Virus record (IMG/VR): IMGVR_UViG_2690316285_000006
Length of the DNA: 5,920 nt
From: a virus
Taxonomy: Duplodnaviria > Heunggongvirae > Uroviricota > Caudoviricetes
Reading direction: 5' to 3' (one strand)
The position numbers were made by a program, and so were the translations under genes. A model generated the notes under the pieces. That model searched no databases. It saw only the letters and a program-made list of their open reading frames with translations, and had not been told where the DNA came from. How positions within the stretch are numbered: position 1 is the first letter of the stretch; each line of letters starts with the position of its first letter. This document shows positions 1,635 to 2,165 of this stretch, one piece after another.

Positions 1635-2165
1635 ATGACACTTCTACCAGAAAAGATCTACATGGTATCGAATCCCATGGATCTAACGGTATTAGTACCC
1701 GCTGCTACTATTCTTGTTATTAGTTTTACATCATCTGGAAAAAGTACCTCATTAGATAATTTAAATGGTAGTACTTCAAAAGAATTTACGGTTGTATTAG
1801 ATATGAGTACAGCACAGGAATTACTATTCTGTACTCAAATATCTAATGGTCAAACCAGTACTTTTACTTCTGAAGTCATTAATCCATTACTTTATACTTC
1901 TGAGTACTCCCAATTAAAACAGATGATCAGTGAAATTGATCAGGTTATAGCTAATAAAATTGCAGGCGGTGCTAATTACTCAATAACAATTAATAATAAG
2001 ACTCTTGTAAGTGAATCATTATCATCGCTTGAATCAATGCGGGAACGCTATGTAAAACGTGCTAATGCTCTATTTGTGAAAATGAATGGCGGTACTTTCT
2101 CTAATGGCGGTAAACCAATCAAGAGTATTACGGTTTTCAGGCCTAAGCCAGGGAGTACACGCTAA
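1635..2165 (+). CDS. Head-tail joining protein with gpW-like C-terminal domain and ~90-aa N-terminal extension of unknown function
   Basis: Sits between terminase and portal, the lambda W position. The C-terminal ~80 aa ([22 protein letters not shown] / [14 protein letters not shown] / [21 protein letters not shown]) follows the gpW helix, beta-hairpin, helix pattern. SD AAGGA upstream. Stop TAA 2163-2165 overlaps the next ATG (TAATG). The N-terminal part is Ser/Thr-rich with a hydrophobic stretch (residues ~16-31). Confidence 0.6.
2151..2155 (+). promoter_or_regulatory. Shine-Dalgarno-like GGGAG, 9 nt upstream of portal ATG 2165
   Basis: Sequence ccaGGGAGtacacgctaATG read directly. Confidence 0.5.

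Follow-up and report, generated by a model that had tools for sequence, protein, structure and literature searches.

A prophage gene of Enterobacterales probably encodes a two-domain head-to-tail adaptor of the roseophage R4C type

In a 5,920-nt stretch of DNA from the Caudoviricetes record IMGVR_UViG_2690316285_000006 (hereafter the window), we assign the gene lying between a terminase and a portal gene, with a probability of about 80%, to the head-to-tail adaptor (head completion protein) of a lambda/R4C-type siphophage head module, carried by an enterobacterial prophage that IS2 has disrupted. Its 176-aa product is an unannotated enterobacterial member of the known adaptor family of roseophage R4C. 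The initial annotation, made from the letters and their reading frames, had called the product a head-tail joining protein, and this is supported by the match to phrog_5774, the match to the R4C adaptor and the position of the gene. The features discussed below are collected in Table 1.

Table 1 Features of the adaptor gene, its product and the surrounding head module (positions in the window)
Feature	Position	Strand	Basis
gpA-type large terminase, 3' part, frame open from base 1	1..1623	+	Pfam GpA_ATPase 4.8e-37, GpA_nuclease 1.9e-40
Shine-Dalgarno-like AAGGA	1622..1626	+	8 nt 5' of ATG 1635; read from the sequence
Adaptor (head-to-tail joining) gene, probable	1635..2165	+	176 aa plus stop; ORF list, phrog_5774, homologues, PDB 8gtd_M
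Predicted N-terminal seven-strand β-sandwich (Ig-like), residues 1-83	1635..1883	+	AF2, Foldseek, dN/dS
Hydrophobic segment, residues 16-31	1680..1727	+	corresponds to predicted strands 2 and 3, with a P-A-A turn between them
Predicted helix 1 of tube domain, residues 84-109	1884..1961	+	AF2; invariant columns; aligned to R4C 98-130
Predicted GG turn and short hairpin loop, residues 110-128	1962..2018	+	AF2 strand 119-123; aligned to R4C 'YSIEGRSITRT'
Predicted helix 2 of tube domain, residues 129-151	2019..2087	+	AF2; invariant L132, R136, Y139; aligned to R4C 149-165
C-terminal arm, residues 152-176	2088..2162	+	pLDDT about 50; invariant S164, T166, R176
Lambda-family portal	2165..3673	+	Pfam Phage_portal_2 3.7e-59; R4C portal 24% identity, E 1e-26
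Prohead protease (S78)-HK97-type major capsid fusion	3621..5465	+	Pfam, PHROG
gpFII-like stopper (head closure)	5479..5802	+	Pfam Phage_attach E 3e-4, below curated cut-off; phrog_82 E 4e-3

The reading frame runs for 176 codons from ATG 1635 to the TAA at 2163-2165 with zero internal stops. The Shine-Dalgarno-like AAGGA in front of it overlaps the terminase stop codon (TAA, 1621-1623), and the adaptor stop and the portal start overlap in turn as TAATG (2163-2167). No purine-rich motif of this kind precedes the internal ATG at 1923 (Met97), where the preceding bases read ...ctcccaattaaaacag; the frame is thus as the initial annotation had described it, with neither an internal stop nor a Shine-Dalgarno sequence at the internal ATG. 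The Ser/Thr-rich character that it had ascribed to the N-terminal part also holds, the combined share of the two residues being 29% in residues 1-90 compared with 19% in residues 91-176.

Searching 5.8 billion proteins yielded 65 homologues, nearly all 153-182 aa long and aligned over 95% or more of the query, with identities from 95% down to about 40%. Their hosts are Escherichia, Shigella, Klebsiella, Enterobacter, Cronobacter, Cedecea, Kluyvera, Phytobacter and Edwardsiella, and exact partial matches to the product of 1635-2165 are annotated in Shigella sonnei. The N half of these homologues aligns as protein, and the start motif M-x-L-L-P-E-K-I-Y is common to them. An exhaustive profile search of 1.84 billion proteins retrieved only 32 representative clusters, most of them of 153-181 aa. 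Pairwise dN/dS (Nei-Gojobori; five DNA loci without indels; dS up to about 1-1.9) amounts to 0.17-0.38 for codons 1-83 and 0.08-0.23 for codons 84-176. These ratios show both domains to be under purifying selection, with the N half somewhat less constrained than the C half.

When 50,697 phage genomes were searched by tblastn, neither the window protein nor its relatives P0065 and P0076 found a match, and P0083 found one record only, Escherichia phage DCP80 (PQ671644.1). Megablast of the window matched phages solely through the IS2 end, and E. coli genomes solely through the terminase part and the IS2 end. DCP80, the only phage-database record with a family member (locus L002, 1734-7789), is a 141-kb genome classified as Straboviridae/Tevenvirinae, the first 13 kb of which form a lambda/R4C-type block of terminase, adaptor, portal and capsid genes, all annotated as hypothetical; this composition suggests a chimeric assembly or a misclassification. 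Two giant repeat proteins were not counted as homologues. The N-domain part of the profile hits P0085 (4333 aa) in 19 stretches (E 4e-8) and P0091 (1377 aa) in 6 stretches (E 2e-5), and the Pfam hits of both proteins are of the bias type with zero accepted stretches. We treated these matches as compositional or due to β-rich repeats, though a real shared β-sandwich repeat may underlie them.

The order of gpA-type terminase, adaptor, lambda-family portal, protease-capsid fusion and gpFII-like stopper is found in the window, in R4C and in the loci L001, L005 and L007-L009. The PHROGs common to the neighbours in the window and in R4C are 15; 21, 537 and 33813; 617 and 4523; and 82. The protease-capsid fusion aligns with R4C gp006 over its full length (25% identity, E 1e-29); Peptidase_S78 and the HK97-type capsid occupy one 614-aa ORF, as in gp006, and in the window this ORF shares its first 53 nt with the end of the portal gene. 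The R4C stopper gp009 matches phrog_82 at 3e-15, and the gpFII-like stopper of the window is the expected partner of the adaptor loop. In related loci the slot between terminase and adaptor takes insertions, at about 2130-2492 in L010, at 2810-3259 in L004 and, in R4C, in the form of an SSB gene. L010, a high-GC contig, has a 460-nt gap before a short adaptor gene; across this gap runs an uncalled ORF (1899-2492) whose four CxxC pairs give it the look of a zinc ribbon.

Downstream of the stopper, the gene that begins at ATG 5805 (MMLVQKVRNTMKQLINATKNLTVSRDVDV...) corresponds to the 129-aa gene found at this place in L005. The end of IS2 interrupts it from about 5881-5889, the terminal repeat TGGATTTGCCCCTATATTTCCAGACATCTGTT beginning at about 5889, and the prophage is therefore disrupted right after its head-completion genes. 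Hits to Pfam Amidoligase_2 (E 0.04) and to PHROG Sak4 (E 0.005) fell below threshold and were disregarded. In the related prophage of E. coli ESBLEC_MG48 (L003, 18636-20233 and 15097-18633), the tail tip resembles that of R4C and RcGTA, comprising DUF2163 (hub-like), DUF6950 and a 1178-aa 'tail tip fiber' protein, so that homology with R4C reaches past the head module.

The link to R4C was established at the profile level. The window protein matches phrog_5774 ('head-tail joining') with E 8.7e-11, residues 75-166 aligning with positions 83-174 of the 177 in the profile, and its C half alone does so with E 1.5e-10; R4C gp004 matches the same profile over its whole length (E 5.7e-37). When PDB was searched with a profile of the C-domain family, a single solved structure was returned, chain 8gtd_M ('Head-to-tail joining protein', 178 aa, 12 chains; E 3.3e-5). 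The full-length family profile gave the same chain (E 3.6e-5) with an alignment that spans the domain junction 'VI.DPLA'. This match appeared only once distant family members had been added to the profile; a PDB search with our narrow first alignment (A1) found nothing. Direct comparison by hhalign of window residues 78-146 with R4C residues 97-165 gave a probability of 87% (E 3.8e-6), and BLASTP of the window adaptor against gp004 detected no pairwise similarity. On these alignments, the C half of the window protein is homologous to the R4C adaptor. A Serratia phage paper that cites R4C proved to concern a different gene.

The matching structure, 8GTD, is the portal-adaptor complex of roseophage vB_DshS-R4C, a backbone-only model built into a 4.7 Å map (PMC10276861). 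In it, gp004 consists of an Ig-like 'attachment domain' (residues 1-106) located at the ring periphery, where it contacts the capsid around the fivefold vertex as seen in a low-resolution C1 map, and of a tube domain of two helices (residues 107-130 and 149-166) (PMC10276861). The adaptor loop between the helices (residues 131-148) binds the stopper, and a C-terminal hook (residues 167-178) forms hybrid β-sheets with the portal clip (PMC10276861). The authors of that structure likewise found no Pfam match of the Ig type for the attachment domain (PMC10276861). Aligning our N-domain family with R4C residues 1-106 by hhalign gave a probability of 0.25% and no significant alignment, and the proposed equivalence of the two N domains accordingly draws on position, size and fold class, because the domains themselves are not significantly alignable. 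In more distant members of the family the alignment to phrog_5774 begins at profile position 44-67, and these members share with the R4C sequence 'PPGEWTWFAV' a motif of the type 'D-T-x-x-W...G-x-Y'.

AlphaFold2, run with the family alignment, predicts for the N-terminal part a sandwich of strands at residues 7-9, 15-21, 25-31, 37-42, 49-55, 61-70 and 73-82, with pLDDT of 83-92 by block across residues 7-82. The best Foldseek matches of this domain in PDB are sandwiches of the Ig, FN3, E-set and macroglobulin types, and the modelled N domain appears to be without a close structural relative there, because all of these scores are weak (E 1.3e-3 to 5e-2). The window protein matches none of the Pfam families Big_2, I-set and FN3; one relative (P0251) has a weak E-set-like match to TcfC (E 0.003, below cut-off). 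The initial annotation had proposed that the extra N-terminal part might be a novel accessory module at the portal vertex. An accessory domain at the vertex is supported; its novelty is not, since the R4C cryo-EM structure (PMC10276861) already contains an Ig-like attachment domain in a protein with profile-level homology to this one.

The C-terminal part is modelled with lower confidence (pLDDT 50-85), and a model of this half alone contains the same helices. Helix 1 begins at the invariant Pro84, within the domain junction motif (V/I)I(N/D)P. The most conserved motif of the protein lies in the hairpin loop (residues 118-128, with invariant I119, N120, K122, L124 and E127), and the loop of residues 110-128 corresponds to the R4C adaptor loop and probably to the gpW β-hairpin. 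In the C-terminal arm, the conserved motif K-P-I-K-S-I-T-V-F (residues 160-168, nt 2112-2138) is disordered in the monomer model; by its likeness to the R4C hook and the gpW C-arm, this arm is a putative portal-binding hook. Foldseek searches with the C-domain model gave no match with E below 3, and structure searches retrieved neither 8GTD nor gpW; in such searches the C domain, being a small helical hairpin, resembles many unrelated proteins, and 8GTD offers only a backbone.

Lambda gpW (Pfam PF02831; NMR structure 1HYW) was the protein to which the initial annotation had likened the C half. All lambda gpW relatives carry PF02831, but this family was matched neither by the window protein at E<=1 nor by any of 29 C-domain sequences at E<=10. 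With a gpW query verified at 99-100% identity, hhalign gave a probability of 0.7%, and with a gpW alignment of 14 sequences (of low diversity, Neff 1.65) it gave 0.2-0.7%. Both the C domain and lambda gpW match phrog_118 ('head-tail adaptor') weakly and in similar register (E 0.003 and 0.03). Two stand-alone homologues of the C domain also bear on this comparison: P0095 (66-86 aa, E 2.6e-10) is flanked by a gpA-type terminase on one side and a lambda-family portal on the other, and P0093 (81 aa, E 5.9e-17) lies directly 5' of a 510-aa gene, presumably the portal gene. The C half resembles gpW in gene position, size and the weak matches to phrog_118, and probably in predicted topology. What stands of the earlier likeness is a gpW-sized connector module in the gene slot of gpW, while the searches of PF02831 and the hhalign comparisons with gpW failed. 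Judged by these profiles, the C half does not appear to belong to the strict gpW family, and it probably functions like gpW and may be a very distant relative.

Two other readings of the N-terminal region are weighed here against the data above. In one of them, translation starts at ATG 1923 (Met97) and yields a gpW-sized protein of about 80 aa, the upstream 290 nt being non-coding or a separate small gene. This would accord with the stand-alone C-domain homologues P0095 and P0093 and with some short database entries (P0017, P0019 and P0063), though these are partial or lie at contig edges. The start signals point the other way, with a Shine-Dalgarno-like motif before 1635 and none at 1923. 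Homologues down to about 50% identity keep both the open frame and the start motif, codons 1-83 show the low dN/dS given above at dS values up to about 1, residues 1-82 are modelled as a sandwich with pLDDT of about 90, and the two-domain length matches that of the solved R4C adaptor. We regard an internal start as extremely unlikely and reject it, because homologues, shared start motif and dN/dS mark the N-terminal extension as coding and constrained. The frame 1635-2165 appears to be a real gene translated from ATG 1635 as a single two-domain product, and the view of the initial annotation that it represents a genuine fusion is upheld by full-length homologues, the Shine-Dalgarno-like motif at 1635, the dN/dS of both halves and the predicted two-domain fold.

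The other reading takes the hydrophobic stretch near the N-terminus for a signal peptide or a membrane anchor that tethers the protein. The stretch lies at residues 16-31, where the initial annotation had located it, and the best 19-residue Kyte-Doolittle window of the protein (residues 17-35) scores 1.73, just over the usual threshold of 1.6. This maximum is reached only in the closest relatives; in most homologues it is 0.5-1.3 (about 1.0), and K, R, Q or N occur within the stretch (for example LAVTLPARTILVV and YTVTIPAKTLFVI). In the AF2 model a Pro-Ala-Ala turn divides the stretch into two 7-residue strands, a positively charged n-region is absent, and the protein is a member of a virion adaptor family. 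Hydropathy across homologues and the AF2 model revealed neither a conserved hydrophobic helix of at least 19 residues nor a signal peptide. The segment is best modelled as two core β-strands of the sandwich and not as a conserved membrane helix; the membrane association that had been suggested for it is given up, and an anchor or signal peptide has next to no probability.

For the two-domain adaptor, homology with R4C and analogy with gpW suggest the following mode of action. After DNA packaging, twelve copies would attach beneath the portal, and residues 84-151 (helix, hairpin loop, helix) would form a ring that lengthens the portal channel. The hairpin loop with the invariant K122 (residues 118-128) would point towards the channel and the gpFII-like stopper; the equivalent element touches DNA in gpW (PMC10721106) and binds the stopper in R4C (PMC10276861). 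The conserved C-terminal arm (KPIKSITVF) would stay unfolded until it binds and would then contribute strands to the portal clip. As in R4C and RcGTA, the Ig-like domain formed by the N-terminal 83 residues would lie at the ring periphery and touch the capsid proteins round the portal vertex; this contact would stabilise the junction with its 12-fold/5-fold mismatch. In the RcGTA adaptor, the attachment domain binds capsid proteins around the portal (PMC7296036). The dodecameric ring, the binding of the portal by the C-terminal arm and the contact of the N domain with the capsid are all inferred from these analogues.

A different function for the Ig-like domain would be an outward one, in which it serves as a weak glycan- or surface-binding decoration, like other Ig-like domains of phages, or as a docking platform for a neck fibre instead of bracing the capsid. 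Phage structural Ig-like domains have often been proposed as adsorption aids (PMC10276861), and, as expected of a surface-exposed domain, the N domain shows the faster evolution of the two domains and resists alignment across subfamilies. Moreover, in the close relatives L005 and L001 a very large fibre gene lies between the head-completion and tail-tube genes. R4C, however, has the N domain without a fibre gene at the corresponding place, and the peripheral domain of the adaptor is seen against the capsid in both R4C and RcGTA (PMC10276861, PMC7296036). The fibre protein has an N-terminal tube-like domain of its own, which suggests anchoring in the tail tube rather than in the adaptor, and matches to Pfam Big_2, I-set and FN3 are absent. 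An outward role is therefore unlikely in our estimate. The narrower proposal that in the enterobacterial lineage the Ig-like domain forms the anchoring ring of the very large fibre is very unlikely; if true, it would mean siphophages with a fibre-bearing collar at the neck.

The fibre genes themselves (L005 14556-17660, 1034 aa; L001 15196-16887, 563 aa) encode chimeric proteins just 5' of a tube gene of 148-157 aa. Each combines an N-terminal domain like that of major tail or tube proteins (phrog_158, residues 1-144) with a long tail-fibre body, to which the L005 protein adds a Peptidase_S74 C-terminus. The chimera looks like a tube-ring subunit that bears a fibre.

Assignment to the R4C-type adaptors gives a name to a conserved virion component of widespread prophages in Escherichia, Shigella, Klebsiella, Enterobacter and Serratia. 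Such an annotation is useful because no model in Pfam or NCBIfam covers the adaptor family and every enterobacterial homologue found is labelled 'hypothetical protein'. By tying a gpW-sized core, which stands alone in some phages, to two-domain adaptors, the family illustrates how a minimal adaptor may gain a capsid-contacting domain. The value of the assignment lies mainly in annotation and comparison; it opens no new mechanism and the biological surprise is small.

Among known systems, the Ig-like decoration domains of phages (Big_2, I-set, FN3) share with the window protein the addition of a small β-sandwich to a structural protein, but they differ in that its N domain matches none of their Pfam families and its location at the neck argues against adsorption. 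HK97 gp6 and SPP1 gp15 are adaptors related to RcGTA g6. The latter (Rcc01688) has, like the window protein, an attachment domain, a tube domain, an adaptor loop and a C-terminal hook (PMC7296036), whereas its tube domain is built of four helices and a five-strand insertion makes up its attachment domain. R4C gp004, from Dinoroseobacter phage vB_DshS-R4C, is similar in length (178 aa compared with 176 aa) and in its order of N-terminal Ig-like domain, helix, loop, helix and C-terminal hook, and the terminase, portal, protease-capsid fusion and stopper genes around it are homologous to those of the window and lie in the same order. The two differ in the size of the N domain (106 aa in R4C, 83 aa in the window protein), in the SSB gene that separates terminase and adaptor in R4C and is missing from the window, in host (Roseobacter compared with Enterobacterales) and in the state of the window copy, which resides in an IS2-disrupted prophage. 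With lambda gpW, the window protein shares the gene slot between a gpA-type terminase and a lambda-family portal and, in residues 84-176, probably also a predicted topology of two-helix bundle, β-hairpin and extended C-arm that is disordered in the monomer. By contrast, gpW is a single domain of 68 aa that lacks an N-terminal domain, and the helices of the two-domain, 176-aa window protein are longer (26 and 23 residues). In situ, gpW is a 12-mer adaptor with helices at residues 4-22 and 37-54, a β-hairpin at 23-36 and a C-arm at 55-68; the C-arm augments the portal β-sheet, and Arg32 in the hairpin touches DNA (PMC10721106). Residues 84-176 of the window protein, residues 107-178 of R4C gp004 and lambda gpW would thus have the same list of parts.
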